From positions 1 to 35,493 of IMG/VR virus record IMGVR_UViG_3300024181_000011: a stretch of 35,493 nucleotides of DNA; one strand, written 5' to 3'. The translations under genes and the position numbers were made by a program. The first letter of the stretch is position 1. Each line of letters opens with the position of its first letter. The notes under the pieces were generated by a model, which worked only from the letters and a program-made list of their open reading frames with translations, did not search any database and had not been told where the DNA came from. The stretch comes from a virus (taxonomy: Duplodnaviria > Caudoviricetes). Positions 11,874-34,210 of the stretch are shown one piece after another.

Positions 11874-12989
11874 ATGCCAGTCGAGCCGATAGTCCCTGGG
11901 GGGAGGCAGGGAGTAGCCTTTCTTCTTGCCTCCCCCGCTTTTTGGGTCGCAAGTGCGACCGTGTTGATGTATTGCCCGTGGTGGCCGGACGCCTGGACAA
12001 CGCCAAGACAGGTGGTCTTGCTTCTTGGCCTCGCGTGGCTTTGGCAACCCGTCAAGCTAACGCTAGTGCATCTCCTTACCTTGCTTTGGCTTGCATACGT
12101 GGCCTTGGCCGCGTATTGGGCACCGGACCGGACTGGCGCCCTGGGCAGCCTCTTGGATCTTGCCTTGCTTGTGGGCGTGCTATGGATCGGACGCGGCGAA
12201 GAATTACTCAGCGGCGCTTGCGTCGGCGTGGCAGGCCTTGGCGCCCTCGCGTGTTGGGAATCGTGGCAAGGACAGATCTCTGGGCAGCTCCTGGGGAATC
12301 CGAACTACCTGGGCGAAGCTGCAGCGATTGGCATATCGTGGGCCCTGGTTGGACGGCGATGGGGCATGGCCCTTTGCCTATGTCCAGCCCTGGTCCTTAG
12401 TGGCTCTCGCGCTTCTCTCCTTGGCCTCGGTTTGGTCGTGGTCTGGCTAGGGTATAGGCAATGCAGGGGGCTATGGGCAAGGTTCATCCTGGTGGATTTG
12501 GCGCTCGGAGCCCTGGTCTGGGCAATGGTGTTCTCAAACAGCACAAGTCTCTTCATGCGCCTGGATTGGTGGCAAGTCGCGCTGGAAAATCTTGTGCCCT
12601 TTGGGCATGGACCGGGGAGCTTTTGGCAGTCCTTGCCCGTTCACAATGTGACGTACTTCCAGGGCGTGATGCAGGAACGGCCGGAGTGGCCGCACAATGA
12701 GCTGGTCGACTGGCTATTCACCCTGGGCCTGGGGGCAATTTTTCCCATTGCGCTTTGCTTTGTACTATGGCAGGACAAGGCGCGCCGACCCTTGTGGCTC
12801 TGCGTCGCCGTTGTCGTGGCGCTGGGCTTTCCGCTGCATGTCCCGAGCACGATCCTTTTGCTTGGCAGCCTTGCCGGCCTTAGTGCGGAGCATCTGCCTA
12901 GGCTTGGCCTTGCTCGCCGCCCTTGGCGAGACGCAGGCAAAGTGGGCGTGGAGCCTGCCCTCTCCGGCCTTAGTCATCGGAGGGCTTGA
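11874..12989 (+). CDS. O-antigen ligase / O-oligosaccharyltransferase-like (Wzy_C) polytopic membrane protein
   Basis: About ten TM segments; GNPNYLG, SGSRAS, R..WW..A, FGHGPGSF, WPHNELV (catalytic His) and FPLH motifs. Confidence 0.85.
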   Translation: MPVEPIVPGGRQGVAFLLASPAFWVASATVLMYCPWWPDAWTTPRQVVLLLGLAWLWQPVKLTLVHLLTLLWLAYVALAAYWAPDRTGALGSLLDLALLVGVLWIGRGEELLSGACVGVAGLGALACWESWQGQISGQLLGNPNYLGEAAAIGISWALVGRRWGMALCLCPALVLSGSRASLLGLGLVVVWLGYRQCRGLWARFILVDLALGALVWAMVFSNSTSLFMRLDWWQVALENLVPFGHGPGSFWQSLPVHNVTYFQGVMQERPEWPHNELVDWLFTLGLGAIFPIALCFVLWQDKARRPLWLCVAVVVALGFPLHVPSTILLLGSLAGLSAEHLPRLGLARRPWRDAGKVGVEPALSGLSHRRA

Positions 12990-13308
12990 AGTGGCCAAGT
13001 GGACCTGGCCTCTGGACAGACGACTGGTCGATGGCCCTGCCCACGCAGTCGTTGGCTTCGGGCCGGCCTTTGACGACAATGTGGGCTGGCAGATATTGTA
13101 CAATGCGGCGCAGCGGGACCCTAGTCACCTTGATTGGCTCCTTGGCCTCGGCCGCATCGCCCATCGGCAGGGCAACTCTAGCCTTGCCTTCGCGTACTTT
13201 GCAAAAGCGTGTGCGCTTGCGCCGCGTCTTGCACCTTGCTTGGCTGTCAGTGGCCCCGTCCCACTGTCAGAGCCAACCCTTTCGGCGGGCTTAGGAGCAT
13301 CGAGATGA
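12883..13308 (+). CDS. TPR-like protein with N-terminal hydrophobic helix, overlapping the ligase gene in the +1 frame
   Basis: AAQRDPSHLDWLLGLGRIAHRQGNSSLAFAYFAKACALAP is TPR-like; stop overlaps next ATG (ATGA); start uncertain. Confidence 0.6.
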   Translation: MRSICLGLALLAALGETQAKWAWSLPSPALVIGGLEVAKWTWPLDRRLVDGPAHAVVGFGPAFDDNVGWQILYNAAQRDPSHLDWLLGLGRIAHRQGNSSLAFAYFAKACALAPRLAPCLAVSGPVPLSEPTLSAGLGASR

Positions 13309-14627: not shown

Positions 14628-15977
14628 ATGGACACCCTAAGCCAAGGCTCTACGAAAATCCAGGAGACGCGTAGCGTCTCTGCTGGCTTTCCGCAGGCCC
14701 TTGACTTCTTGTTCAAACCGAAGAGATACAAGGTTGCTTGGGGAGGCCGCGGAGGTAGCAAGAGCTGGGGAGTAGCTAGAGCACTTCTCATCATGGGTAT
14801 GCAGCGGCCTCTCCGTATCCTTTGTGCGCGCGAATTGCAGAACTCGATCGCCGAGTCAGTGCACAAGTTGCTTAGTGACCAAATTGCTTTGATGAATTTG
14901 CCCTACAAGATCGAAAAGACGCAGATCTACAATGATCTTGGAAGCGGGTTCTTTTTCGAGGGCATCTACAGGAACGTGGACCGGATTAAGTCCTATGAGG
15001 GCGTGGACATTTGCTGGGTGGAGGAGGCCCATAGGGTTACTAAGGCCTCTTGGGAGATCTTGATCCCGACCATCCGCAAGGAAGGGAGCGAGATTTGGGT
15101 CACGTTCAACCCGGATCTGGAGAGTGATGAGACTTATCAGAGGTTTATTAAAAGTCCGCCGCCGGATGAAATGGCCTATGTTCGCAAGATCACTTGGAGG
15201 GACAACCCCTGGTTTCCCAAGGTACTCCGCGAAGAGCTTGAGGAACTCAAAAGGAAGGACTACGATGAATACCTGCATGTGTGGGAAGGAGAGTGCAGAA
15301 TCCTGCTCGAGGGCGCCGTTTACGCGGAGGAACTTCGGGACTTGGTCCGTGACGGACGCCTGTGCAAAGTCCCGTACGATCCAACTGTGGGTGTCTCGAC
15401 CTTCTGGGACCTGGGATGGGCAGATCACACTTCAATTTGGTTTGCCCAGAGGGTTGGGTTTGAGAACCATATCATAGACCATTACAGCAACCATCTTAGG
15501 TCCTTGGATCACTACTTGGGCATCCTCCAGTCTCGCGGGTATATCTATGACACGAATTGGCTTCCTCACGACGCTAAGGCAAAGAGCTTGGGCACGGGCA
15601 AGTCAATCGAAGAACTCATGCGCGCCAAGGGATTTAAGACAAGAGTTGTGCCACGTCTTAGTCTCGCAGATGGAATCAATGCGGCAAGGACAGTCTTTGC
15701 CTCCTGCTATATCGATGCAGACAAGTGTGAAGCAGGTGTCAAATCGCTTCGTAGTTACCATTACGAAGTAGTCGAAGTCGGTGGACGGCTGAGCAAAGAG
15801 CCAGTCCATGATGTGCATAGCCATGATGCAGACGCCTTTCGGGCGCTGGCCGTGGCGCTCCGCGCCCCCAAGGGCAAGGGAAATGACAAGCTCATCAACT
15901 TGGCCGAACGCAAACCAGGTCTTGTCTATGAGGCGGGACGGAGGATTAGCAATAACCTCCGGTGGCTAGGTGGCTGA
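14628..15977 (+). CDS. terL: Terminase large subunit (PBSX-like)
   Basis: Walker A GGRGGSKS, RILCARE, Walker B ICWVEEA, TFNP, nuclease WDLG..D and HDADAFR. Confidence 0.97.
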   Translation: MDTLSQGSTKIQETRSVSAGFPQALDFLFKPKRYKVAWGGRGGSKSWGVARALLIMGMQRPLRILCARELQNSIAESVHKLLSDQIALMNLPYKIEKTQIYNDLGSGFFFEGIYRNVDRIKSYEGVDICWVEEAHRVTKASWEILIPTIRKEGSEIWVTFNPDLESDETYQRFIKSPPPDEMAYVRKITWRDNPWFPKVLREELEELKRKDYDEYLHVWEGECRILLEGAVYAEELRDLVRDGRLCKVPYDPTVGVSTFWDLGWADHTSIWFAQRVGFENHIIDHYSNHLRSLDHYLGILQSRGYIYDTNWLPHDAKAKSLGTGKSIEELMRAKGFKTRVVPRLSLADGINAARTVFASCYIDADKCEAGVKSLRSYHYEVVEVGGRLSKEPVHDVHSHDADAFRALAVALRAPKGKGNDKLINLAERKPGLVYEAGRRISNNLRWLGG

Positions 15978-18240
15978 GCGCGGCGTTCCCCGTCCGCTGG
16001 GGTCCCAACGCGACCCGATTGTGGATGAGGCGGACAAGCGCCTGCAGAGGTGCGTTGACTATGAAAGTGTCTGCCGGACCAGCTTCATTGAGGATTATAA
16101 GTTTGCGGAAGCTGATGCTGACAATGGCTTTGCTTGGCCAGACGCTATCCGCCGCAACCGCGACATTGACGAACGCCCTTGCTTGACGGTCAACAGGACC
16201 AGGCAGCACAATCTCCAGATCATCAACGATGCCAAGCAGAACAAGCCAGGCATTGTCATTCGCGGGACTGGGAATGGTGCCACATACGAGAGTGCAAAGA
16301 CGTATGAAAGCATAGTGCGTAATATCGAATACCAGAGCAATGCCCAGACAGCGTACTCGACGGCCACTGAGTTCCAGGTCAAGTGCGGCATAGGCTGGAT
16401 TCGCGTTACCCGCGAATATAGGGACGAAGACAGCTTCGAGCAGGACCTCTTCATTCGCCGAGTCAATGATCCGCTAAGCATCTACATTGACCCGGATGCC
16501 AAGGAAGCCGACAAGTCCGATGCCAAGTTTGCTTTCGTCTTCGATGATGTTCTGAAAGATGACTTCGCTGATGCCTATCCCAGCCTAAGCGAGTTTGAGA
16601 TCGGCCAGAACGCCCTTGGCATCGGCGGGATCACAAGCAAAGATTATATTCGCGTGGTAGAGTACTTCCGCAAGCTCGACGTTGCGGACGAGCTGGCAGC
16701 AATCCGCAATTCGCAAACTGGCCAGATGGAGGTCATCCGCAAGTCAAAGCTGCCGAAGGAAATCTGGCCAGAGATCAAAGCAGACAAGACCATACAGACA
16801 AGGCCGATTACGTACACCAAGATCGAACGATATCTCATTGTTGGGGACAAGATCGTCGAAAAGACCGATGAGCTAGGCAAGTACATCCCGCTGGTGCCTG
16901 TCATCGGAGAAGAGACCCTGATTGACGGCAAGCTGGATCGCAAAGGCCACACTCGCGCTCTGAAAGATCCTGGGCGCATTTATAACTACTGGACAAGCTC
17001 GGCTGTCGAGCAGGTTGCTCTGCAAGGAAAAACTCCTTGGGTCGCTCCGGCTGCTGCCATTGAGGACTATGAGGGCTATTGGAACACCGCCAACCGGGTC
17101 AATCATTCGGTCTTGCCTTATAATGCCTTTGATGATGCCGGGAATGCCCTACCTGCTCCAGCGCGCACCAATCCCCCTGAATATGGGCCGGCGTACTTGT
17201 CTGGGATGCAGGTCGCCGTCAATGAAATGATGATGGTCAGCGGGCAGTATCAGCCGCAGATGGGAGAGCCCTCGAATGAACGCAGCGGAAAGGCGCTGGC
17301 GGAAAGGCAGCGTCAGGGCTCGAATGCTACGTATCACTTTATTGATAATCTTGGTGTTGCTATACGCCACGTTGGCAGAATTTTACTTGACCAGATTCCT
17401 CTAGTCTACGACACAAGGCGCGTGATGCAGATCCTTGCCTTGGACGGCACAGATTATGAAATCGAGGTCGATCCGAGCGCCAAGCAGGCCTACATTCAGC
17501 ACCTGAACCACGATCAGGAGATTGTCAAGAGGATCTTCAATCCGAGGCTTGGAAAGTATGATGTACAAGCCGACATCGGTCCTGCCTACGGGACACAACG
17601 CGAACAGATGTTCGATGCCCTCACAACGCTCATTGCGCAGGCGCCGGATATGGCAAGTCTCGTCGGCGACTTGTGGATGAAGGCGGCGGACTTCCCAGGG
17701 GCAGACGAAGCTGCCGAGAGGTTTAAGCGGATGCTTCCGCCGCAGGCCCTGGGCAAGGGACCGAGCCAAGCGGAGCAGCAGCTGCAGCTTCAAGTAGATA
17801 ACTTGACTAAGCTTCTGACCAAGGCCCTTGACAAGGAAGCTGGCCTGGCGCTGAAGTTGAAGGGCAAGGAGGAGATGCGCGAGATCGACGCTTTCGACGC
17901 GGACACGAGGCGCCTTAAGATCCTTGCCGATCATGGCATTGACCAAGGGACCCTGAGTGTGCTCAAGCTCCAGCTCATGCATGATATGAACCAAAACACG
18001 ATGGCCTTGGTCGCAGATGATAAGCATAGGGACGCGGATAGGGAGGCAAGCATGGCCACAATGGGCGAAGCCCCCGCCGAAGGCGGCGAAGCAAGTGCGC
18101 CAAAGGTCGCTGGCAACGGCAATGGTGCCGGAGGAGGAGGGGCTGAGGCCCCTCCGATCCCTGGTGCTCGGCGTGCTCGTGATGGCCACTGGTATGTGCC
18201 TGACCCAACGAGGCCAGGCAAGTATGCCCTGGTGGCCTAG
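15970..18240 (+). CDS. Portal protein, P22-like, with C-terminal extension
   Basis: 756 aa directly after terL; RPCLTVNR, YIPLVPVIG, KDPGRIYNYW, SGKAL..RQ.QG, GKYDV motifs. Confidence 0.95.
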   Translation: MAERGVPRPLGSQRDPIVDEADKRLQRCVDYESVCRTSFIEDYKFAEADADNGFAWPDAIRRNRDIDERPCLTVNRTRQHNLQIINDAKQNKPGIVIRGTGNGATYESAKTYESIVRNIEYQSNAQTAYSTATEFQVKCGIGWIRVTREYRDEDSFEQDLFIRRVNDPLSIYIDPDAKEADKSDAKFAFVFDDVLKDDFADAYPSLSEFEIGQNALGIGGITSKDYIRVVEYFRKLDVADELAAIRNSQTGQMEVIRKSKLPKEIWPEIKADKTIQTRPITYTKIERYLIVGDKIVEKTDELGKYIPLVPVIGEETLIDGKLDRKGHTRALKDPGRIYNYWTSSAVEQVALQGKTPWVAPAAAIEDYEGYWNTANRVNHSVLPYNAFDDAGNALPAPARTNPPEYGPAYLSGMQVAVNEMMMVSGQYQPQMGEPSNERSGKALAERQRQGSNATYHFIDNLGVAIRHVGRILLDQIPLVYDTRRVMQILALDGTDYEIEVDPSAKQAYIQHLNHDQEIVKRIFNPRLGKYDVQADIGPAYGTQREQMFDALTTLIAQAPDMASLVGDLWMKAADFPGADEAAERFKRMLPPQALGKGPSQAEQQLQLQVDNLTKLLTKALDKEAGLALKLKGKEEMREIDAFDADTRRLKILADHGIDQGTLSVLKLQLMHDMNQNTMALVADDKHRDADREASMATMGEAPAEGGEASAPKVAGNGNGAGGGGAEAPPIPGARRARDGHWYVPDPTRPGKYALVA

Positions 18241-18243
18241 GCC

Positions 18244-19686
18244 ATGCCAGACATCAATCCCCTAGTCAGTGCACAGCCAAACGGATTGCTCACCGTTGAT
18301 CAGTCCTCGGCCCTGATGGGGCCGCCAGGCTATGCAGAGCCCGGCCCCTTGGACAGCGGCCCTATCTACAACAGCCATGCTTATCAGACCTTGCTTAGCC
18401 TCGCACGGACCTTTGGCACGCCCGAGGGCCGAGTCAAGCTCGCAGATGCTTTTGCCAATCCGCCGAGGCAGACGCGCGAAGCGCGTCTTCAGACGGCGGC
18501 AGAGCTGGCGTTGAACTTCGGCGGTATTGGCGCCGTTAAGGCCTTTCATGGCAGCCCGCACGAGTTTGCGCCGGAGCCCGGTGCACCGCTGGGCCGCTTC
18601 AGGGATGAAGCGATTGGGACGGGCGAGGGAGCCCAGGCCTTTGGGTATGGGCATTATGTGGCGGAGAGTCCGGGAGTGGCGAGTACGTACAAGGGCAGCC
18701 GCGACATTGGCACCAATGACGTTACAACGTATAATGGACAGCCTATCCATGACAAACGGGGCATTATTGAGAAAGGTGCGCAAGATGCAGGCTTAAGCAC
18801 CGAATGGCAGGAAGACGCAATTTCTGCCTTTCATCACTCCCTTGGAGATATGGATATTGCACAGACTGAGTTTGGTCTGCATGGACAGGCAGTGGATTGG
18901 TTAGAGAAGAACAAAGATAAGCTTTCTTTTGTTAAAGGCAAAGACTCGGAGCCAAGCCTGTACAATGTCGTCGTGCGGCCGGACAAGCACGAATTGCTGG
19001 ACTGGGACAAGCCGTTCCGTGAGATGGAACCAGATTTGCAAGATAAGCTGGTCAAGATCTATGAAGGGTTTGGCCCTGGAAACATTTTGTCAAATAAAAG
19101 TACTGGAGAAGAGATTTATCGAGATATTGCTCGTCGCATGGGCACCACGCAGACACATGCGCCACAGGTCGGAGGTGGCTATCAAGTCACCTCAGCGAAT
19201 GAAGCGGCTGCTTCGGCCGCTTTGCACGAAGCCGGAATCCCCGGCATCAAGTTCCTGGATCAGCAGAGCCGCAAGGGTGGCTTTGTTGTTCAACGGCGTG
19301 AGCGTTGGTGGCCAGAAGATAAAGGCTGGAATCATCTTGACCATTTCGATACGCGCGAAAAGGCTGAGCAGGCTGTCAAAGAATTGAGTGACCCAACACT
19401 TTTCGAGAAGGCTTCTAAGCGAGATTACAGGATTAAAGAGAATCCGAAGACTCACAACCTGGTGATCTTCCATCCAGACAACATCAAGATCACCGCGCGG
19501 AATGGCAAGGCGCTCACGCCCGTGGACCATGATCCCTTCGCGCCGGACTTACGTCCTGTGGATCATGTGCCAGAATTTGAGGGGGACGCGCATCCTCGCG
19601 TCCCGGAGGCAAGGCGAGCGCCAAATGGGCGCTTCTATGCCTTGGACCCTGAGCGGCCTGGCAAATATGTGGAGGTGCCACATTGA
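18244..19686 (+). CDS. ADP-ribosyltransferase-like protein (ART-PolyVal type)
   Basis: AFHGSPHEF...IGTGEGAQAFGYGHYVAE...A..Y, SLYNV, LLDWDKP, GIPGIKFLD, NLVIF motifs known from polyvalent-protein ART domains. Confidence 0.7.
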   Translation: MPDINPLVSAQPNGLLTVDQSSALMGPPGYAEPGPLDSGPIYNSHAYQTLLSLARTFGTPEGRVKLADAFANPPRQTREARLQTAAELALNFGGIGAVKAFHGSPHEFAPEPGAPLGRFRDEAIGTGEGAQAFGYGHYVAESPGVASTYKGSRDIGTNDVTTYNGQPIHDKRGIIEKGAQDAGLSTEWQEDAISAFHHSLGDMDIAQTEFGLHGQAVDWLEKNKDKLSFVKGKDSEPSLYNVVVRPDKHELLDWDKPFREMEPDLQDKLVKIYEGFGPGNILSNKSTGEEIYRDIARRMGTTQTHAPQVGGGYQVTSANEAAASAALHEAGIPGIKFLDQQSRKGGFVVQRRERWWPEDKGWNHLDHFDTREKAEQAVKELSDPTLFEKASKRDYRIKENPKTHNLVIFHPDNIKITARNGKALTPVDHDPFAPDLRPVDHVPEFEGDAHPRVPEARRAPNGRFYALDPERPGKYVEVPH

Positions 19687-20660
19687 AGCCGGTTGACTAT
19701 GACCCCTTCCTGCTCGACCATGTGGCCGCCCAAGGGAATGGGGCGGACAGGTTCCTTGCCCACATGAGTCCAGGCGATTTGGTAATCCCTGAGGAGCATG
19801 TCACGCCAGAGATCCGGGCGATTCATGCACAGATCTTGGGGCGCCTTGCGCCCCGGTTCACTGTGGGTCATCCGCAGAACAGCATCAATGGCAAGACTGG
19901 GCTCATCCAGTTTGAGGATGGGGGCGACGGCGGAGATGGGGGAGATGGCACGGGTGGCAATGACAGTGGAGGGGGTGCCGTAGGTGGTGGCTCATCCACT
20001 GGTGGCCTTGGAGGCGGCTATGGTGGCTTCGGCGAAGGCGTTGGACAGAGCCGTGACTCTTCTCCCGGTGAAACTGGTGGGCAGGGCCTCGGCGGTGAAA
20101 CCGGCACCGGCCACGATCTTGGCCAGAGCGGCTGGGGCAGCGGCATGGTGGGAGGCTTCGGCAATCCGACAAGTGGGATTGGGCTGATTGACAAGGGCAT
20201 TAACGCGGCGGTGACAGATCCAGGGGGGTTCCTAGGTAAGGCCGCTGTAAACATTGGTATCGGTATGGTACCAGGCCTGGGCCTCGTGAATACGGCTAGT
20301 GGATTGCTTGGTGGACCGACCATCGGTGGTGCCATTGTCGGAGGTTTTGACCCTTCCAGCCCGAACTCGAATCAGGGAAAAGGCTTTAGTCTGGATGGAC
20401 TAGGGCAAAGCTCAGGTCCTTCTGGCATGGCTACTGGTGCGCAAGGTTCCAATCAGGATCAGCCGCAAGGCCCCATTAATAGTCTGACAACTACGCAGAA
20501 TGCTCAGGGGCCGGCGGCCATTCAGGCCTTTATTTCTCAGGCCTCGGTGAATCCCTTATTGCAGAACCTGCTCCATGCCGGCGGGCCGCTCGAGGAGCCG
20601 ACCAAGCCACAGGTCTTTGGAAATCCCTACATCAACGGCGGACAAGGAAATACGGCATGA
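19683..20660 (+). CDS. Gly-rich putative internal virion protein
   Basis: TTG start with GGAGG; G..D..LAH.SPG..VIP...SIN..TGL..F motif followed by Gly-rich and glycine-zipper-like hydrophobic segments. Confidence 0.6.
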   Translation: MKPVDYDPFLLDHVAAQGNGADRFLAHMSPGDLVIPEEHVTPEIRAIHAQILGRLAPRFTVGHPQNSINGKTGLIQFEDGGDGGDGGDGTGGNDSGGGAVGGGSSTGGLGGGYGGFGEGVGQSRDSSPGETGGQGLGGETGTGHDLGQSGWGSGMVGGFGNPTSGIGLIDKGINAAVTDPGGFLGKAAVNIGIGMVPGLGLVNTASGLLGGPTIGGAIVGGFDPSSPNSNQGKGFSLDGLGQSSGPSGMATGAQGSNQDQPQGPINSLTTTQNAQGPAAIQAFISQASVNPLLQNLLHAGGPLEEPTKPQVFGNPYINGGQGNTA

Positions 20661-20992
20661 CCCAGGGCATCCCGACCAAGCCGAACAAGCAAGGCTGGGT
20701 ACATCCCCTGCTTCGCGAGGTGGCGATTGGCTTCGCGCAGACCTTGTATGAGCGCCTTGCCCAGGACAACTTGTGGTACAAGCATAATAGGTCCAGGGGC
20801 GCGTTTGTAAGCTCCAGATGGCCAGATTTGCTCCCCGCCGTGCGAACCCACCTAAGTGCCCTTTGCTCGGCCACTTCGCCTCTTCCCGATAGCGAAAAAG
20901 ACAAGATTGTGTCAGCCTTGATCGCAGACAACGAATTGCGCCTCGGGCGGGGAAGAGCCCAGGCAGCTAGAGTGCAGAGGATGTTCCAGTAA
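20657..20992 (+). CDS. Hypothetical protein
   Basis: ATGA coupling, AAGGA RBS. Confidence 0.75.
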   Translation: MTQGIPTKPNKQGWVHPLLREVAIGFAQTLYERLAQDNLWYKHNRSRGAFVSSRWPDLLPAVRTHLSALCSATSPLPDSEKDKIVSALIADNELRLGRGRAQAARVQRMFQ

Positions 20993-21786
20993 TGGCGGAA
21001 GAGACGGAAGTCAAGGAAGAGGACAAGACCGAGGACAAGACCGAGGTCAAGGAAGAGACTAAGGTCGAGGCAAAGGCCGAAGGTGCCAAGCTTCCCGCTA
21101 CGCTCGAAGAGGCCCTAGCGGAAATTGACAAGCTCTCCAAGGGCCGGGGGGAGGTGCCTGAGTGGGCGCAGAAGCGCATCGACACCATCACGCGAAGCTG
21201 GCGAGAGACAGAGCGGGAGCGGGATGCGCTCAAGGGCCAGGTCGAGCAATTGAAGGCCGCAAAGCCCAGTGCGCAGGTCGGCTTCACTGCGGAGCAGGTG
21301 GCGCAGGAGGCGGAACGCCTCGCGGCCGAGAAAGAGTTTGCGACGGCGACGAACAAGGTGCTGGCAGAGGGCCGCAAGAGCAATCCGGGCTTTGACGCCG
21401 CGCTGCAGCAGCTTCACAATATCTCCCCGGCGATGGTGCAGACGGCGCAGGGGGCGGTGCCCAATATGCCTCGGAGTTTTGTGGAGGCAGTCATAGAGTT
21501 GGACAAACCTGCCGAAGTGTTGTCTGCCCTTGCCTTGCCAGCCAACCATGATGAAGCAGCGAGAATCATGGCGCTGCCTGCTTCGCGCCAGGGCGTTGCC
21601 TTGAGTCGCTTCGCCGCGGGGCTCGTCCCGGAGAAGGAGATCAGCAGGACGCCGGCGCCTGGGACGACCGTGGTCGCAGGGCGGGCGCGAGGCGCTACTA
21701 CGGTCTATGACGCGGGGAAGGTCAGTGCCGCTGAATGGATGGAACTCAGAAATCGTGAAATTCGCGAGAAAGCAAAGAGAGCCTGA
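20992..21786 (+). CDS. Capsid scaffolding protein
   Basis: Glu/Lys-rich N-terminus, WAQKRIDTIT coiled coil, C-terminal helix, located before the capsid gene. Confidence 0.8.
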   Translation: MAEETEVKEEDKTEDKTEVKEETKVEAKAEGAKLPATLEEALAEIDKLSKGRGEVPEWAQKRIDTITRSWRETERERDALKGQVEQLKAAKPSAQVGFTAEQVAQEAERLAAEKEFATATNKVLAEGRKSNPGFDAALQQLHNISPAMVQTAQGAVPNMPRSFVEAVIELDKPAEVLSALALPANHDEAARIMALPASRQGVALSRFAAGLVPEKEISRTPAPGTTVVAGRARGATTVYDAGKVSAAEWMELRNREIREKAKRA

Positions 21787-22361
21787 TGCCTGCTATCAAA
21801 GATGTAGGCACAATCACGGCTGAAGAACTTCGGCAGTGGTTAGACTATAATCCAGTCACAGGGCAGTTTAAGTGGCGCCGCTACAGGCAAGGCGTTAAGT
21901 CAGACTTGGTTGCAGGCAGCCTGAACAACTGTGGCTACCTTGTTATCCGGCTGAAGAATCGCCTCTACATGGGACATCGTTTGGCTTGGTTACATTTCTA
22001 CGGCGAATGGCCAGATGAGCTGATTGACCATGAACATCGTGAGCGGCATCGCACTGACATTGCTTCGCTGCGGCAAGCTACTCATGCACAGAATCGCTTC
22101 AATGCCAAGTATAACAAGAATAATACTTCTGGAATTCCTGGTGTCCGATGGGATGACAACACCAGATCTTGGTGTGCACAGCTGTTCTACGCAGGCAGTT
22201 ACAAGCTGAATAAGCACTTTGCCGAGCTTGAGGACGCAATCGCCGCGCGTAGTGCTGCTGAGCAGGAGATTTTTGGAGAGTTCGTGCCTGAGCGTGTTCC
22301 GCATAATGAGCTGCGGCCGTCTGATTTCATGGAGGAACTCTCACCAGCTGACTTTGCATAG
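21786..22361 (+). CDS. HNH (HNH_3-type) homing endonuclease with AP2-like domain
   Basis: LDYNPVTGQFKW, GY..I, HRLAW, IDH, NNTSGIPGV.W, A..AR..AE motifs. Confidence 0.9.
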   Translation: MPAIKDVGTITAEELRQWLDYNPVTGQFKWRRYRQGVKSDLVAGSLNNCGYLVIRLKNRLYMGHRLAWLHFYGEWPDELIDHEHRERHRTDIASLRQATHAQNRFNAKYNKNNTSGIPGVRWDDNTRSWCAQLFYAGSYKLNKHFAELEDAIAARSAAEQEIFGEFVPERVPHNELRPSDFMEELSPADFA

Positions 22362-22533
22362 TCCACTTCGCCGGACTCTGGCGTTGCTTTGAGTGCAAGA
22401 CTGCGAGGCCTAACTCAGCCTCAGGTGCAGAAACAGGACCCTCACCAAGTCCAAGCTCCGTTCGATGCCAAAGACCTTCGACGGCTCCACAGAACCCTAC
22501 TAACAGGCGCGCTGCGCCAATCAGGAGTCTTCG
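22362..22533 (+). promoter_or_regulatory. Structured 172-nt non-coding leader of the capsid gene
   Basis: Series of inverted repeats (22369-22383, 22384-22398, 22401-22430, 22506-22518); AGGAG RBS at 22523. Confidence 0.45.
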
Positions 22534-23790
22534 ATGGCCAACACCTTGCTCACGATTTCGATGATCACGCTGGAAGCTATCCGGCTCTTCATCAACTCCA
22601 ACGAATTCATCCAGCACATCGACCGCCAATACGACGACAGCTTCGCCCAAACCGGCGCCAAGATCGGGCAGAGCCTCAGAATTCGCCTCCCGAATGATTT
22701 TGTTGTCGCCACTGGCCCCGCCTTGTCCGCCCAGGACACTGCAGAGCAATCCATCACCTTGCCTTTGGCGACACAGAAACACGTGGACGTGTCCTACTCC
22801 ACCGTCGATCGCACCATGTCCCTGGACAATTTCAGTCGCAGGGTCCTTGCCCCGATGGTGAACAACCTCGCCGGTGCAGTGGCGGCCGACGTGATGACAG
22901 GGGTTGAGGCTGGTGTCAGCAACTTCACGGCGAACCTGGATGCAAGTGGCGCAGTGCTCACGCCCCTGGCAGGCACGTGGCTGAATGCCGGAGCGATTCT
23001 GGACCTCAAGTCCGCGCCCAGGAAAAACCGCAAGCTCATCCTTGACCCGCTGACAATGGCGCGGACGGTGACAAGCCTTACGGGCCTCTTCAACCCCAGT
23101 CGGGCCATTTCTGCGCAATATGAAAGCGGCCAGATGCAGGAGGCCCTCGGCTTCGACTGGTTCTCGGATCAGACGGTGATCAAACATCTTACCTCGTCGT
23201 ACACGGGCACGGGTGCGCCGGCAACGATCGCTGGCACGGTCCTTGGCGCCTCGCAGACCGGCCTCCAGATCGTCACGAATGCGATCGCAGGTGGCCTGAA
23301 CATCGGCGAGATCATCACGTTTGCTGGCGTCAACGCGGTGAACAGGGTCACTAAGCAGACCACGGGGCAGCTCAGCCAGCATGTTGTCACGAGTGCCGTT
23401 GCGCCTGGAGGCACGCTCATCAATATCTACCCGGCCATCATTCCAGGCGGCGTGGGCTATGTTCCGACCTCGGGCCTCAATGGCGTGCAGTACCAAACGG
23501 TCGATGTGAGCCCCGCAAATGGGGCGAATATCTCGGTGGCGACCTTGGCTGCAAGCACCTATCGCAAAAACATCGCCTATGCACCGGAGGCCATTACGCT
23601 GGCGACAGCGGACCTTGAGACGCCTCGTGGCGTCCACGAAGTGGCCCGCGAGGAGTTCGATGGGATCTCCATGCGTATGATCTCGGACTACATCATTGCG
23701 ACAGATCAAATGGTGACACGCCTTGATGTTCTCTATGGCTTTGTGTTCATTCGGCCGGAGTGGTGCGTGGCAGTCGGCGACGCGGTATAG
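22534..23790 (+). CDS. Major capsid protein, P22 coat protein (gp5) family
   Basis: MANTLLT..MIT.EA, KIG..LRIRLP, QKHV, RLDVLYG...IRPEW motifs. Confidence 0.95.
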   Translation: MANTLLTISMITLEAIRLFINSNEFIQHIDRQYDDSFAQTGAKIGQSLRIRLPNDFVVATGPALSAQDTAEQSITLPLATQKHVDVSYSTVDRTMSLDNFSRRVLAPMVNNLAGAVAADVMTGVEAGVSNFTANLDASGAVLTPLAGTWLNAGAILDLKSAPRKNRKLILDPLTMARTVTSLTGLFNPSRAISAQYESGQMQEALGFDWFSDQTVIKHLTSSYTGTGAPATIAGTVLGASQTGLQIVTNAIAGGLNIGEIITFAGVNAVNRVTKQTTGQLSQHVVTSAVAPGGTLINIYPAIIPGGVGYVPTSGLNGVQYQTVDVSPANGANISVATLAASTYRKNIAYAPEAITLATADLETPRGVHEVAREEFDGISMRMISDYIIATDQMVTRLDVLYGFVFIRPEWCVAVGDAV

Positions 23791-29111: not shown

Positions 29112-29254
29112 GCTGGGATGAAGAGATGAAGGCACTGGAGGACTGGTGCAGGGAGCATGGGCGGCCATTGCCAAACGAGAAATGGATGTGGTTTCCCTGG
29201 AGAGTGGACAATCCTGTAGAGGTGGCGCCGCCGTGGAGGCCTAAGCGTGACTAG
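29108..29254 (+). CDS. Small Trp-rich hypothetical protein (48 aa; not in ORF track)
   Basis: ATGA-coupled; MSWDEEMKALEDWCREHGRPLP...; fills the gap exactly. Confidence 0.5.
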   Translation: MSWDEEMKALEDWCREHGRPLPNEKWMWFPWRVDNPVEVAPPWRPKRD

Positions 29255-29828
29255 GCCATTCATAGTGTTTGCCATGCCCAGGGCGCGGAGTGCCTGGCTA
29301 TCCGCTTTCCTTACCTATGGAGAGTGGACCTGTATACATGAGATGTCGGTGGCCTTTGGGCAGATCTCGGACCTGGACAAAATCTTGTCTCGGCCGCGGA
29401 CTGGTGTATGTGATACGCAGCTGGCGCTGTGCTGGCCGGAGGTGATCGGGCGCTGGCCGCAGGCCAAGCTGGTCGTCTTACGACGACCCAAGGCAGAGGT
29501 GGTGCGAAGCTGCGAAGCCCTTGGCTGGCACGGCCCCATGCTGGAGAGGGCCGTGGATAGGCTAAGCTTGGCCCTGGATGAAGTCAGCACCCTTAAGGGT
29601 GTGCTCTGCACAAGCTTCCAAGAACTCAAACACGAGAGCAAGGCACGAAGCGTGTTTGAACATTGTCTGCCTTGCGCTTGGGACCCTGGCTGGTGGGAAC
29701 ACACCAAGGATCTCAATATACAGATTAGGCCAGAGGTCTTGATTGCTCGGGCGCAAGCCAATCGCCTGGGGATAGAACGGACCTTTGGCAGGGCCACGGC
29801 GTACTATGACTCGCGGGTGCTACAGTAA
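29247..29828 (+). CDS. Sulfotransferase-like P-loop-fold protein
   Basis: FIVFAMPRARSAWL...CIHE resembles the 5'-PSB loop; LVVLRRP..VV.S resembles the 3'-PB motif; GGAGG RBS. Confidence 0.6.
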   Translation: MTRPFIVFAMPRARSAWLSAFLTYGEWTCIHEMSVAFGQISDLDKILSRPRTGVCDTQLALCWPEVIGRWPQAKLVVLRRPKAEVVRSCEALGWHGPMLERAVDRLSLALDEVSTLKGVLCTSFQELKHESKARSVFEHCLPCAWDPGWWEHTKDLNIQIRPEVLIARAQANRLGIERTFGRATAYYDSRVLQ

Positions 29829-29840
29829 GGATACCTTGCA

Positions 29841-30581
29841 ATGCCCATAGGCTTGGGGACGGCGCTGTTGCTCAGTGCTGGCGGTGGATTGCTTAGCGCG
29901 GCGCTGAGTGCAGACGCGGCAAGTGGGGCAGCAGACACACAAGCTTCTGCCGCGCGAGAAGCGAGCGCGAATGCACTTACGGCCTCTCGTGAGGCGGCGG
30001 CGCGCTTGCAGCCCTTCGCCACTGGTGGCGTCAACGCCTTCAACACCCTTGGCCTAATGACTGGGACGGCGCCGGGGACCAGTCCGCTGACAGCGCCCTT
30101 GACAGCGCCCTTCAATCCGGCGGATTTGACGCAGACGCCTGGCTACAAATTCACGCTGGATCAAGGGCTGCAAGCAGTCCAAAGTGGCATGACAAGCGGA
30201 GGCCTTGGCAGAAGTGGTCCGGCTCTCAAGGGCGCAGCGAACTACGCAACTGGGTTGGCAAGTACGACCTACAACCAGCAATTGCAGAACTACCTCACGC
30301 AGAATCGGCAGATCTTTGATATGTTGTCTGGGCAGGCGAACCTTGGTGAGAACGCCGCTGCTGGCGCTGGGGCGCTTGGCGTGCAAGGCACGAATTTCTC
30401 AAACAACTTCTTGACTAGTGGCGCTGCTGCTCAGGCCGCCGGGCAGGTCGGCGTGGCCAACGCCATCGGTGGCGGAATCAATAGCCTGACATCGAGCGCA
30501 TTGACTGGGGCAATCTTGCCACAGCTGCTTGCTCGCAATGCGCAGAATCCATTGCAGGCTGCTACTGGTAAGACTACATAA
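29841..30581 (+). CDS. DNA ejection/pilot protein (P22 gp7-like)
   Basis: Ala/Gly-rich hydrophobic N-terminus; LQPF..GG, PGYKF..DQG, SG.ALK motifs. Confidence 0.8.
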   Translation: MPIGLGTALLLSAGGGLLSAALSADAASGAADTQASAAREASANALTASREAAARLQPFATGGVNAFNTLGLMTGTAPGTSPLTAPLTAPFNPADLTQTPGYKFTLDQGLQAVQSGMTSGGLGRSGPALKGAANYATGLASTTYNQQLQNYLTQNRQIFDMLSGQANLGENAAAGAGALGVQGTNFSNNFLTSGAAAQAAGQVGVANAIGGGINSLTSSALTGAILPQLLARNAQNPLQAATGKTT

Positions 30582-30593
30582 GGAGATCTTGCC

Positions 30594-32252
30594 GTGCCAC
30601 TCGATCCCAGTATCTCCCTTGGGGCTGCGCCGCAGCAAAGCAATCCTTTGGCGATGGCCGGGCAGGCCGTGGAGCTTGGCAACAATCTGGTCAAAGGCCA
30701 GCTGCTGCAAAATCAGAATGCCCTGTTCCAGCTGCAGACCCAAAGCCAGCTTGCCATTGGAAATATCCTTGCGCAGCATACGAACCCAGAGACAGGCGAG
30801 GTGGACTTGAAAGGCGCTATGGCTGCGACGAGCAAGAGCGGCCCAGCGGCTTATGGTATGCAGGACATTCTAAAGAAGAATGTCGAGAGACAAATTCAAC
30901 AGCTCGAACTGACGACCAAGGCCATTGGGATGCATAGCAAGATCGCAGAGACGACAGCCAATGCTTTTGGGCCCTTGCTGCAAAAGCCTGGAGGTGGCTC
31001 CGACGACGACCTCAAGAACACCATTTCGCAGGTCTGGAATGTGTACTCCACCGATCCGATGATCATGGATAGTCATAGAGAGGCTATTCGCAAGCAACTG
31101 CTTACCACGTTTGCGAATCCGCCACCACAAGGCCCTGGACGCGAAGAATGGGTTCGCAGCCATTGGGCACAGTTCCAGGAGTCCAAGGCCCAGATGGATG
31201 CGCAGACACCCGACAGGTTCGAGGTGGATACAGGCTCGACCAAGGATGTCTATGGCATTGATAAGATGTCGGGGAAAATCACTCGAATGGTGAGTGCGCC
31301 CAAGGGGCTTACGCCAGCGGAAGGGGCAGCGCCCGTTACGGCGCCGGGCGGGCAGCCGGTGCCCCTGCGAAGCACGACCTTGGCGCCAGGGCAGGGCACG
31401 AGTCTGGTCAGTCCGACAGCGCGAGGGAATGCACTGGTCGGTGCGCAAGGCAATCCCTTGGCAGGCCCAACGCAGGATCAGACCGACGCGATGACCGCCG
31501 GGGTGGCTGAGGACAATGCGCTTGTCGGGCCGAGGGGCACGGTGCCGCAGGCAGCACCAGGGCAAGGTGCCACTGGGCCGAGTGGAGTGCCAAGCCTGCA
31601 AGGGCAGCCCAGCGGTCGCATCGCGCCGCAGACCACTGTGGAGGCAGAGCTGCAGAAGCCTGCGATCAAATACGCTGAAGCGCTCGATGAACGAGTCGAA
31701 GCTGGTGGGCAGATGCAGAAGCAGCTGGCGGAGGTCATTCCTCTGTTGAGCAAGATCAATACAGGTGGCTTAGGTGAAGTCAAAGCGAAGCTGGCACAAA
31801 TTGCACAGGGCATTCCAGGGGTTTCACCAGATCTCGTAAAGCGCATTGCCAATGGTGATCTTGCTGCGGCGCAGGAATTTGACAAGTTCATGGTAACGTA
31901 TGCAACAACTACTATGTCTAGGGCACTTGCAGGTAATACAGGCAAGTTCACTCAGATGGAATGGGCAAAGTTCCAAGAGGCTAATCCAAATCTCAACACA
32001 GACCCAGAGGCTGTCCGCAAGATCTTCAACTTTGCGACTCGTATGTATCAGATGGATCGCAAGGAGCAAGAGGCTCTGGTGGAAGCAAGAAAAGAACCTG
32101 GATTCAATATAACAAATTGGCAGAATACTTGGCAGAAGAGAATGCAAAAAGAGGGCATGATTAATCCGCAGGAGATTCCAGAGCCAAAGCCAGCCCAGAA
32201 AGCGACTACGCATGAGGAGAGGCTTAGACAACTCTTTGGGGCTCGGCCCTGA
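30594..32252 (+). CDS. DNA ejection protein (gp20-like position)
   Basis: Gln-rich helical protein after the gp7-like gene; AAGGAG RBS; position-based call. Confidence 0.65.
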   Translation: MPLDPSISLGAAPQQSNPLAMAGQAVELGNNLVKGQLLQNQNALFQLQTQSQLAIGNILAQHTNPETGEVDLKGAMAATSKSGPAAYGMQDILKKNVERQIQQLELTTKAIGMHSKIAETTANAFGPLLQKPGGGSDDDLKNTISQVWNVYSTDPMIMDSHREAIRKQLLTTFANPPPQGPGREEWVRSHWAQFQESKAQMDAQTPDRFEVDTGSTKDVYGIDKMSGKITRMVSAPKGLTPAEGAAPVTAPGGQPVPLRSTTLAPGQGTSLVSPTARGNALVGAQGNPLAGPTQDQTDAMTAGVAEDNALVGPRGTVPQAAPGQGATGPSGVPSLQGQPSGRIAPQTTVEAELQKPAIKYAEALDERVEAGGQMQKQLAEVIPLLSKINTGGLGEVKAKLAQIAQGIPGVSPDLVKRIANGDLAAAQEFDKFMVTYATTTMSRALAGNTGKFTQMEWAKFQEANPNLNTDPEAVRKIFNFATRMYQMDRKEQEALVEARKEPGFNITNWQNTWQKRMQKEGMINPQEIPEPKPAQKATTHEERLRQLFGARP

Positions 32253-34210
32253 TGGCAGAGCGCGGAGCGCCTGGAGAGGAAGACCTACTCCAGTTGGAAG
32301 ATAGTGCGCCGGACTTGGCAACGGCTGTTCATCAGGCTGTGCAAGAGGGCATCCCTGGCGATGCTATAATGTCCTATGTGAGGAGGCATCCCAAGTTCAA
32401 GGCTGGACTCGAGGCCGGCGTGCCTGAGGCTGATGCTATGGATTATCTTGGCATTGGCGACGTTTACAGGAGTGATTTGCAGAAGAAAGCTGCAGAAGGC
32501 TTTGGCTATGGGCGCGAGGCGACAAGCGCGCTGACCCTGGGCGGGAGCAAAGTGGCAGAGGCCGGGGCAAGGTCTGGGAACCTTCTCCAGTTCGTTGATC
32601 CGATGGGGCTGCCGAGCTTGGCGACGGCAAAGCCGCTGCCGGACGACGCCAATCGGCCAAGCTACAGCGAAGCATATAAAAGTCTTGAGGCCGGGCAGAG
32701 TGCCTATGAGGCGGAGCATCCGGGCATTAGTGCCCTTACCAATGCCGTGGGGACGTTGCCGGCAACGGCAACGGGGCTGCGCTTGGTACAGGGTGGAGCG
32801 CGGCTTGCCACGGCGTCGATACCGCGCGTCGGTGCCATGCTAACCGGCGACGTTGCGACGGGCGCGTCTGGGCTCGAACGCTTCGCCCGACCACTGACAA
32901 GCAACGCCCTTATGGGCGGTGAAGCCAGCGTCATGCAAGGCGGCGTGCAACCGGGGGAGCGAAGCTGGAGCGACATTGGCGAGGGCATGGCAGCAGGGGC
33001 CGCTATCGGCGGTGTGCAGCGGCTGTTTGGCCATGCCATGACAGGGGACATAAGTCCCTATGTAGCTGAGAATGCTCAGCGCGCAGCGAGCCTGCCAACG
33101 CCAATAAATCTGGCGCCGAGACAGCTTAGCGAGACGGCACCTGGGCAGGTCAGCCATGGCCTCGCTGTGGACCAGCTCAAGGCATTCCAGAGGAACTTGT
33201 CGCATAGTCTGGGAGAGGATTTTGATACCTTCTCGACCGAGAACATGGCGAAGGCAAGGAAGAACATCGGCGATCAGCTGAGCAATGTAGTGCCGAGGCT
33301 TGGCATTGACGCTCGGGGAGAACTTACGGCTGCCACTCGTGGGGCGCCGAACATTGCTGATGATCTTGCTGCAATCGAGACCAAGCTTCACGCGAATATG
33401 GACCCGAAAGATCCAGGCTTTAGCCGGGTGGAGTTCGTGCTTGGGCAGCTCCGAAAGGAGCTTACGCAGGCCGCAGGACGTCCGGCCCCCGGCGGCTTTG
33501 TGGCGGGCGAGAAGTATCAGACCTGGACGAACAAGGACGGGCTCATTGATCAGTTGAATCAAGGGAATACGAAAAGGTACTTTGCGGATGTAAGAGGGGC
33601 CGTTGAGAATGCGCTGGAACGTGGCAGCCCTGCCGATGCAGTGGAAACCTTCCGTGACTATCGGGCGAAGTACAAGAATCTGATTGCACTCGAAGATCCG
33701 GCTGCAAAGGCGGCGACGAACACTGGAGGGCTAATCAATCCAGATCATTTGCCTGGTGCCCTGCGCGGCACGTTTGATGACTATGGCTGGAAGGGCACGG
33801 GGCCACGAAGCCAGATCTTGGCAGACTTGGCGGAAGTCAGTAAGTTTGTGCCGAAGCCGACGGCGACGGGGGGAGTTATTCAGCGAGGCAGCCATAATTG
33901 GGGTAAGACTGAGGCCGCACTTGCAGGAAGTGGTATCACAGGGGCAGCTATCCTTGGCATTGAAAAAGGGCCGGAACTCCTGCATAGCTTGGCGAGTGGA
34001 AGTCCAAGTCATTTAGCCTTAGCGGCTGGTGGAGCGACCTTGGCTGGGCTCGGCTTCGGTGGGCGGCTTGCCGCAAGGCGCATCGCTCAGCAGCCTTGGT
34101 ATCGCAACGCCGTGCTCGGTTCGGTCCTTGCTCCGAATCTCTATCCTACTGCCAACCCGCTCCTAGTCGCACCGATGGTTGCAGCCACCCAAGAGCGCTC
34201 GGAAGAGTAG
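32252..34210 (+). CDS. DNA ejection protein (gp16-like position)
   Basis: Large Ala/Gly-rich protein with glycine-zipper hydrophobic segments; last gene of late operon. Confidence 0.65.
   Translation: MAERGAPGEEDLLQLEDSAPDLATAVHQAVQEGIPGDAIMSYVRRHPKFKAGLEAGVPEADAMDYLGIGDVYRSDLQKKAAEGFGYGREATSALTLGGSKVAEAGARSGNLLQFVDPMGLPSLATAKPLPDDANRPSYSEAYKSLEAGQSAYEAEHPGISALTNAVGTLPATATGLRLVQGGARLATASIPRVGAMLTGDVATGASGLERFARPLTSNALMGGEASVMQGGVQPGERSWSDIGEGMAAGAAIGGVQRLFGHAMTGDISPYVAENAQRAASLPTPINLAPRQLSETAPGQVSHGLAVDQLKAFQRNLSHSLGEDFDTFSTENMAKARKNIGDQLSNVVPRLGIDARGELTAATRGAPNIADDLAAIETKLHANMDPKDPGFSRVEFVLGQLRKELTQAAGRPAPGGFVAGEKYQTWTNKDGLIDQLNQGNTKRYFADVRGAVENALERGSPADAVETFRDYRAKYKNLIALEDPAAKAATNTGGLINPDHLPGALRGTFDDYGWKGTGPRSQILADLAEVSKFVPKPTATGGVIQRGSHNWGKTEAALAGSGITGAAILGIEKGPELLHSLASGSPSHLALAAGGATLAGLGFGGRLAARRIAQQPWYRNAVLGSVLAPNLYPTANPLLVAPMVAATQERSEE

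Follow-up and report, generated by a model that had tools for sequence, protein, structure and literature searches.

The stretch of DNA analysed here (the window) is a complete virus record of 35,493 bases, IMGVR_UViG_3300024181_000011, and our subject is a pair of protein motifs encoded in its head operon: a C-terminal module of about 27 residues, which ends both the portal and the ART-fold protein encoded behind it, and a seven-residue tag, PVDxDPF, present on the ART-fold protein and on the glycine-rich protein that follows (Table 1). Profile scans revealed a P22-type terminase, portal, scaffold, coat, adaptor, head closure and three ejection-position genes, and the window phage is a P22-like podophage. 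The interval between portal and scaffold is occupied by the 480-residue gene, the 325-residue glycine-rich gene and a gene of 111 residues, the tagged genes sitting within the head operon. The portal matched PF16510 with 490 bits (cut-off 26) over profile positions 2-586 of 594, and a low-complexity linker of acidic residues and glycine, about residues 690-727, precedes its module. The glycine-rich gene has a TTG start overlapping the ART stop codon and a GGAGG ribosome-binding-like site upstream.

Table 1. Positions of genes and motifs in the window; the roles of modules and tags are those proposed in the text.
Feature	Position	Strand	Remarks
Terminase large subunit	14628..15977	+	PF04466
P22-like portal, 756 residues	15970..18240	+	PF16510, E 1e-146, residues 23-621; phrog_156
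Module copy 1 (putative receptor, 'hook'), portal C-terminus	18151..18237	+	
ART-fold protein, 480 residues	18244..19686	+	Two tags and module at C-terminus
Tag 1 (putative ligand, 'handle'), PVDHDPF	19519..19539	+	Directly past last strand of ART domain
Tag 2, eight-residue variant PVDHVPEF	19555..19578	+	
Module copy 2, ART C-terminus	19594..19683	+	
Glycine-rich protein, 325 residues	19683..20660	+	25% glycine; N-terminal tag
Tag 3, PVDYDPF, residues 3-9 of glycine-rich protein	19689..19709	+	
Scaffold	20992-21786	+	Family scans
HNH gene, between scaffold and coat	within 20992..23790	+	
P22-type coat	22534-23790	+	Family scans
Three ejection-position genes	29841..34210	+	phrog_598 on first, phrog_26400 on third

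A first-pass annotation of this DNA had noticed both motifs, and all five stretches that it named (18151-18240, 19591-19686, 19519-19539, 19555-19578 and 19683-19709) translate as it had given them. The portal and ART modules are indeed alike, with 53% identity over 32 residues (E 6e-6 in a single comparison), and no other stretch of the two proteins aligned significantly. A six-frame search of the window found two matches to the module pattern and three to a loose tag pattern, none of them outside 18.1-19.7 kb. PVDHVPEF, which had been listed beside PVDHDPF, belongs to a genuine variant class, as PV[DE]xQP[DE]F stands ahead of PVDHDPF in many loci. The whole arrangement (portal with module, ART protein with two tags and module, glycine-rich protein with N-terminal tag) was kept in two other phages, L001 and L033, the latter with a portal 84% identical to that of the window.

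The module has the consensus G-A-R-x-A-P-D-G-x-x-Y-x-P-D-P-x-R-P-G-K-Y. Of 267 candidate stretches in viral contigs, 195 were confirmed with an alignment of six sequences; the top 80 of these gave 79 loci, and 90 of 92 profile matches ended at most 7 residues from the stop codon. A profile built from 107 sequences matched 1,226 protein clusters at E <= 0.001 and 414 at 1e-10; two of the best 150 were repeat proteins that lack the module and were set aside, and 138 of the remaining 148 ended at most 10 residues from the C-terminus. A genome scan with a narrow pattern drawn from the six sequences gave three loci, two of them partial 19-residue matches that were left unused. In AlphaFold models the module is a small beta unit (pLDDT 81-87), with strands at residues 464-467 and 475-478 of the window ART protein. 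Its 107 members, as queries of about 30 residues a weak test, gave only scattered matches in Pfam (E >= 0.04) and none in NCBIfam or PHROGs. The best sequence match in the PDB was partial, to a 441-residue protein (E 1e-4), and was judged a generic hairpin likeness; a fold search with a 65-residue model of tag plus module returned nothing at Z >= 2, the model being too small for this to carry meaning.

The module is carried by very different proteins. The 76 carriers long enough for clustering fell into 27 unrelated groups, and the 79 distinct carriers, 62 of which were scanned, included 33 portals from four PHROG families (156, 1216, 12082 and one from 332); some portals had two or three copies. 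Most of the other carriers were ejection-position proteins, so that the portal-cargo reading of the first-pass annotation is too narrow. In the 26 non-portal loci that were mapped, the module mostly ended the second gene of an ejection-type cluster, with head-closure and gp7-type genes upstream in several (PHROG matches, 39 proteins scanned). Three unusual loci were also observed. A stand-alone module protein of 56 residues (L099:1827-1994) and a protein with an N-terminal tag and a C-terminal module (L063:5002-5709; a GNAT in its relative L151) each lie between a portal and several tagged ARTs, and a portal of 1,135 residues (L111:1689-5093) contains an insertion of about 350 residues that matches terminase PHROG families and is probably an intein.

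The gene after the module usually opens with one to four copies of PV[DE][HYF]DPF, the tag mostly starting 10-30 nt past the module's stop codon. Searching from the module, we dereplicated the loci to 65 clusters, 51 of which had 2.5 kb of downstream DNA. A tag on the same strand lay within this distance in 49 of the 51, in comparison with 0/57 upstream and 0/51 on the opposite strand; the two misses were L108, where the tag varies by one residue, and L087, which has no tag. Searching from the tag (79 loci with wide flanks, 59 clusters, 47 of them new, eight excluded for short flanks), the module was found upstream in 33 of 39 independent clusters. The six misses comprised L169, with the module downstream, L179, where a long protein fills the flank, and four chance-like cases. 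Metagenome contigs provided 117 loci. After removal of 10 duplicates and of 42 loci that overlapped with the window or with loci already counted, a tag was found no more than 300 nt behind the module in 44 of 55 new loci and no more than 2 kb behind it in 20 of 24; there was none upstream (0/22) or on the opposite strand (0/24). In 301 bacterial genomes of one family, all five strong module matches outside the centre genome had a tag right behind them. Neither motif occurred in 39 control loci (441 kb) with related ARTs or portals. The co-distribution on which the first-pass annotation had staked its proposal was therefore found, strongly, in both directions and in three collections.

Every synonymous codon was in use at the 16 conserved positions examined, which argues that selection acts on the peptides and led us to reject a reading of the motifs as an RNA or DNA element. 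The module and the PVDxDPF tag are co-inherited across many phages, at the level of protein and not of DNA. Tags stood at N-termini, 2-10 residues ahead of the stop codon or at both ends of a protein; at least two tagged genes could follow one portal, and in L169 the tag was upstream of the portal. With a further position in an internal ART loop, these placements indicate that the tag is portable. A reading of the tag as a protease site was discarded: in many proteins only 2-10 residues separate it from a terminus, and the window proteins scanned included no annotated head protease. A PDB sequence search with the tag profile gave no match.

A second, unrelated pair occupies the same junction. 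In L049 (2200-2400), a tail of different type (GYRFKGGDP) is followed by a gene with GPWxKY-type repeats at its start and module 1 at its end, so that both pairs are used in a three-gene series. The expression for tag 2 was derived in part from L049 and was fixed before the module 2 loci were read. Module 2 was found in about 280 viral stretches (L255-L374 among the loci), including isolated F116-like Pseudomonas phages and a Bradyrhizobium phage, and had no Pfam or PDB match. The set contained 104 distinct loci, 98 with enough downstream DNA; 97 of the 98 modules ended within 30 residues, and tag 2 followed in 91 and was upstream in none. The two pairs never crossed: tag 1 followed module 2 in 0/98 cases, and tag 2 followed module 1 in 0/76 and 0/55. 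Two unrelated pairs at one junction, never crossed, fit receptor-ligand pairs and not a shared third partner. The corresponding termini of P22 and Sf6, read by eye, have neither module 1 nor its tag and differ from each other in type. In F116 (L376:4080-4200), module 2 is followed by two copies of tag 2 in a short reading frame other than the one annotated for gp59, possibly through a frameshift or a sequence error. Other small C-terminal tails at the preceding junction between ejection genes (L055:2900-3050, followed by acidic repeats containing phenylalanine; L091:4280-4340; L069:1780-1880) are candidates for further pairs.

The ART-like label given to the 480-residue protein is backed by its predicted fold. 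The core, about residues 94-422, has large inserts (model pLDDT 79), and the closest solved structure, 9k3a_B (Z 10.7, root-mean-square deviation 4.5, 158 residues aligned), is a domain from the pre-ejectosome of cyanophage A4. The catalytic domain of diphtheria toxin (Z 7.8) and PARP domains came next, ART-type folds filling the first 32 rows; Foldseek alone returned nothing at E <= 0.001 for this model. PF18760 (ART-PolyVal) did not match the protein at E <= 0.1, and some of its 1,140 homologues carry PF18760; look-alikes were found in the Atlas as well. By sequence profile, the protein is a relative of ART-PolyVal and not a member. Among 96 homologues, H102 was near-invariant, and Y138 and N405, the latter ahead of the last strand, were invariant. 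These residues appear to stand at the positions of the H-Y-E triad, with asparagine in place of glutamate, and the enzymatic activity is putative. One domain was recognised in the window protein, to which orthologues add LPD23. The tag was present in 67 of 120 homologues, including that of the window, and was mostly appended past the last strand, where untagged relatives end; some had a further tag in an internal loop, and six of the 120 also carried the module. When loci were clustered, 17 clusters had tag and module, 17 had neither, one was untagged beside tagged paralogues, and none was tagged without the module. The glycine-rich protein has a domain of about 70 residues after the tag, kept in L001 and L033, and a mildly hydrophobic stretch near 181-211. 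It matched no Pfam or PHROG family, and its only relatives found were those of L001 and L033, Atlas matches under 0.9 being leads only.

Tagged proteins elsewhere (83 scanned of 131 candidates) matched Pfam in 37 cases, and 46 had no Pfam domain. The matches comprised ART-PolyVal (10, three of them above cut-off), DUF7178 (eight), WHH nuclease (four), LPD23, InPase, ddrB-ParB, histidine phosphatase, GNAT, NucA, Tox-ART-HYD1, lysozyme and transglycosylase; in one radical SAM match the tag is probably there by chance. Large tagged proteins, such as those of L108 and L173, had three to four domains each. Neither the window proteins nor the 83 tagged proteins matched the MuF domain. In L143 and L183 a tagged WHH nuclease gene is followed by an SMI1_KNR4 immunity-type gene, and toxin cassettes are repeated in L115, L128, L133 and L181. 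Across these six loci a common series was observed: portal with module, tagged toxin-domain gene, small immunity-type gene (SMI1_KNR4, DUF6881 or ComJ-like), duplicated portal 3' end and second tagged gene. Such loci outline a portal-linked polymorphic toxin array without MuF, in which the repeated portal 3' end and the tagged gene behind it resemble the spare cassettes of polymorphic toxins. No toxin-immunity cassette was seen in the window itself, the arrangement being present in related loci. The isolated phage Pam5 has the module at the end of gp12 and two tags at the start of gp13, and both proteins are virion components by mass spectrometry (PMC9382816, supplementary table 2; Pam5 co-purified with Pam1).

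From this evidence, we are fairly confident that the module is a receptor that binds the tag peptide as its ligand. The first-pass annotation had left open whether the motifs are domain and ligand or are both encapsidation tags; the orthogonal second pair and the cargo of conflict enzymes favour the former and make the latter less attractive. On balance, we also favour the view that this receptor-ligand pair brings the ART-fold and glycine-rich proteins of the window to the portal for packaging and injection. The P22 portal is a dodecamer with a C-terminal barrel that points inward, and by that architecture the portal modules would provide up to 12 hooks facing the head interior. In both the portal and the ART protein a flexible linker precedes the module. 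Folded as small beta units, the modules would bind the tags of the ART and glycine-rich proteins and catch tagged proteins during procapsid assembly. The ART protein's own module may add binding sites, or may take up the tags of the same protein in cis. A fixed order of capture from portal to ART to glycine-rich protein, as originally suggested, is unsupported: the identical tag is on both proteins, several tagged genes can follow one portal, and tags stand at either end. Since the tag is generic in these respects, the portal module could take either protein. At infection, the cargo would be released and pass through the portal, as may occur for MuF/SPP1 gp7 and T4 Alt. In phages with the module at the end of the second ejection protein and the tag at the start of the third, the pair would join these proteins head to tail, and its role would probably be in ordering their exit or in assembling a conduit, not in packaging. 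A co-fold of the ART module with the N-terminus of the glycine-rich protein, both as alignments, scored 0.11 ('no answer') and was not used as evidence.

Several observations weigh against this proposal. In the portal-type loci, both binding and packaging are inferred from sequence, and a strong tether to the portal would have to let go for injection. The dereplicated clusters are not phylogenetically independent, adjoining genes are co-inherited anyway, and the table of ART clusters is biased because most tagged loci entered it through motif searches. Modules without a tag occur in L087, in 4 of 24 metagenome loci (2 kb) and, within 300 nt, in 11 of 55. In P22, the last 50 residues of the portal are dispensable, and the truncated portal still holds ejection proteins (PMC4992974); Sf6 gp16 is packaged without its cognate gp20 (PMC10883804). 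Such pairs therefore need not be loading signals. Tags also occur without the module. The tag pattern was present in 16 of 301 bacterial genomes, four of which also had the module; of the other 12, seven look like off-frame chance, leaving five genomes (L512-L516) in which no module was found. L512-L515 are one family of about 1,100 residues with genuine tags, in four genomes. In L516 (genome G267) a portal ends in the tag instead of the module, possibly through a deletion that fused the portal to the C-terminus of a cargo protein.

The N-termini of the proteins of about 1,100 residues stack several motif types: a start like that of P22 gp16 (36% over 22 residues, E 0.001), FDDL-type and LPPGF-type motifs and PVDHDPF. 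In three regions (L521:5014-10793, L522:10483-14951 and L523:5312-10891) their gene lies behind a tail-fibre-like gene as a two-gene chromosomal cassette, and no portal, terminase or major capsid match was found among the 38 of 67 open reading frames scanned there. These cassettes break the co-occurrence, yet would fit a hitchhiker that uses the modules of a helper. We tentatively extend the proposal to a general docking code in short-tailed phages. Interchangeable, mutually exclusive module/tag pairs might link ejection proteins and hang accessory enzymes on the portal, which might explain why gp16 and gp20 of P22 and Sf6 need their cognates, and capsid-less chromosomal cassettes might hitchhike by stacking tag types on one ejection-like protein. 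This wider scheme seems to us nearly as likely as not.

Other explanations account for part of the data. If cargo is packaged otherwise, module-tag binding might only order or join proteins during and after ejection, for instance by building the conduit or drawing the next protein through, and the portal pair would do no more than park cargo near the exit. The exchanges between P22 and Sf6 speak for this, as phages in which only gene 16 or only gene 20 was swapped are dead despite packaged Sf6 gp16, swapping both genes gives viable phage, and P22 gp20 cannot do without its last 33 residues (PMC10883804), and so do the different types of the P22 and Sf6 junction termini. However, the portal remains in the head and cannot join a conduit, and no other way into the head is evident for the small tagged nucleases that come with immunity genes; we regard this explanation as unlikely. 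Both motifs could also be address labels for a third partner (scaffold, coat or DNA) instead of for each other, as the one-part capsid targeting sequence of T4 and the five genomes with tags and no module would allow. Against such labels, an additional address would be superfluous on a portal, the module is missing from related portals, the two motif pairs are exclusive in their pairing, and a third partner shared by four portal families is hardly to be expected, which renders this explanation improbable.

A pair acting in the infected cell, where enzymes bound to the portal would protect the packaging machine against host defences able to recognise portal or terminase, is an option raised for ARTs encoded near the portal (PMC9503650). 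It appears very improbable to us, because the same pair occurs on virion ejection proteins in Pam5 and the tagged cargo includes cell-wall enzymes and nucleases with immunity genes. The lowest credence goes to the junction of module, stop, start and tag being a cassette for recombination or translational coupling, carried along at the level of DNA or RNA, with the peptides as by-products. The short distance from stop codon to tag and the cassette-like duplication of portal 3' ends with a second tagged gene are in its favour, but the free use of synonymous codons largely refutes it; besides, tags are found at C-termini kilobases off, in repeats and upstream of the portal, and the first tag of the window is 1.3 kb from the portal module.

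Elsewhere in the window, a pattern search of the ejection genes (29841-34210) found neither module nor tag. At the junction of these genes (32190-32480), a short helical-looking C-terminal motif precedes a protein that opens with two repeats, and motif and repeats may form another pair; relatives of the third ejection protein were sought and none was found. The 111-residue gene between the cargo genes and the scaffold (20657-20992) had no family match, and a similar gene, judged by eye, takes its place in L001, L033, L087, L099 and L149. An O-antigen-ligase-like membrane gene (11874-13308) lies ahead of the terminase gene and a sulfotransferase-like gene (29247-29828) ahead of the ejection genes.

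The literature that we searched by motif and by topic, with subscription journals and supplements mostly outside its scope, held no description of the module/tag pair, and a 2022 review of podophage ejection named no recruitment signal in the part available (PMC8954989). The recruitment and ordered exit of podophage ejection proteins and effectors is an open question that can now be tested with two orthogonal pairs, for which isolated phages are available (Pam5 for pair 1, F116-like phages and the Bradyrhizobium phage for module 2). In addition, the tag is a sequence marker for putative injected effectors among genes without a known family, and could serve as a small label to load reporter proteins into phage heads.

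Among known systems, MuF toxins and SPP1 gp7 share with these loci the placement of effector genes right behind the portal and the succession of variable toxin domains and small immunity-type genes, and SPP1 gp7 binds the portal (PMC5576092). On the other hand, MuF is a folded domain fused to the cargo, whereas here the cargo bears only a seven-residue tag, at one end or the other, and the matching module is on the portal. The module/tag system acts like MuF-type portal cargo, yet is not a MuF system. Polyvalent proteins have the cargo domains ART-PolyVal, LPD23, InPase, PBECR1 and ddrB-ParB in common with the tagged proteins; their packaging and injection are predicted, and effector fusions to portal or MuF are reported, but the available parts of these papers describe no tag or receptor (PMC5512222, PMC9503650). 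The module/tag pair would be a non-covalent counterpart of the portal fusions.

As in the ejection-type loci, gp20 and gp16 of P22 and Sf6 are products of the second and third ejection genes, near the portal barrel, which need their cognates, with an essential gp20 C-terminus; their termini lack this module and tag, and no interacting motifs are named in the accessible text (PMC10883804, PMC4992974). In the A4 pre-ejectosome, one chain of which holds the fold closest to the window ART protein (PDB 9K3A), a Cys1715-Cys5 disulfide joins the gp27 C-terminus to the gp26 N-terminus, and a chain-reaction exit has been proposed. In contrast to a portable domain-peptide pair, A4 uses a disulfide link and helix insertion in a T7-like ordered core (PMC12002296). 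By analogy, we infer that the cognate pairs of P22 and Sf6 and the C-to-N link of A4 may follow the same principle as module and tag.

Short portable peptides that address cargo are also found in the T4 capsid targeting sequence and the cargo peptides of encapsulins. Those tags are read by fixed parts of the shell or core, whereas the module described here moves between portal and ejection proteins. The docking domains of polyketide synthases, too, work as orthogonal pairs, which connect a protein's C-terminus with the N-terminus of its successor.

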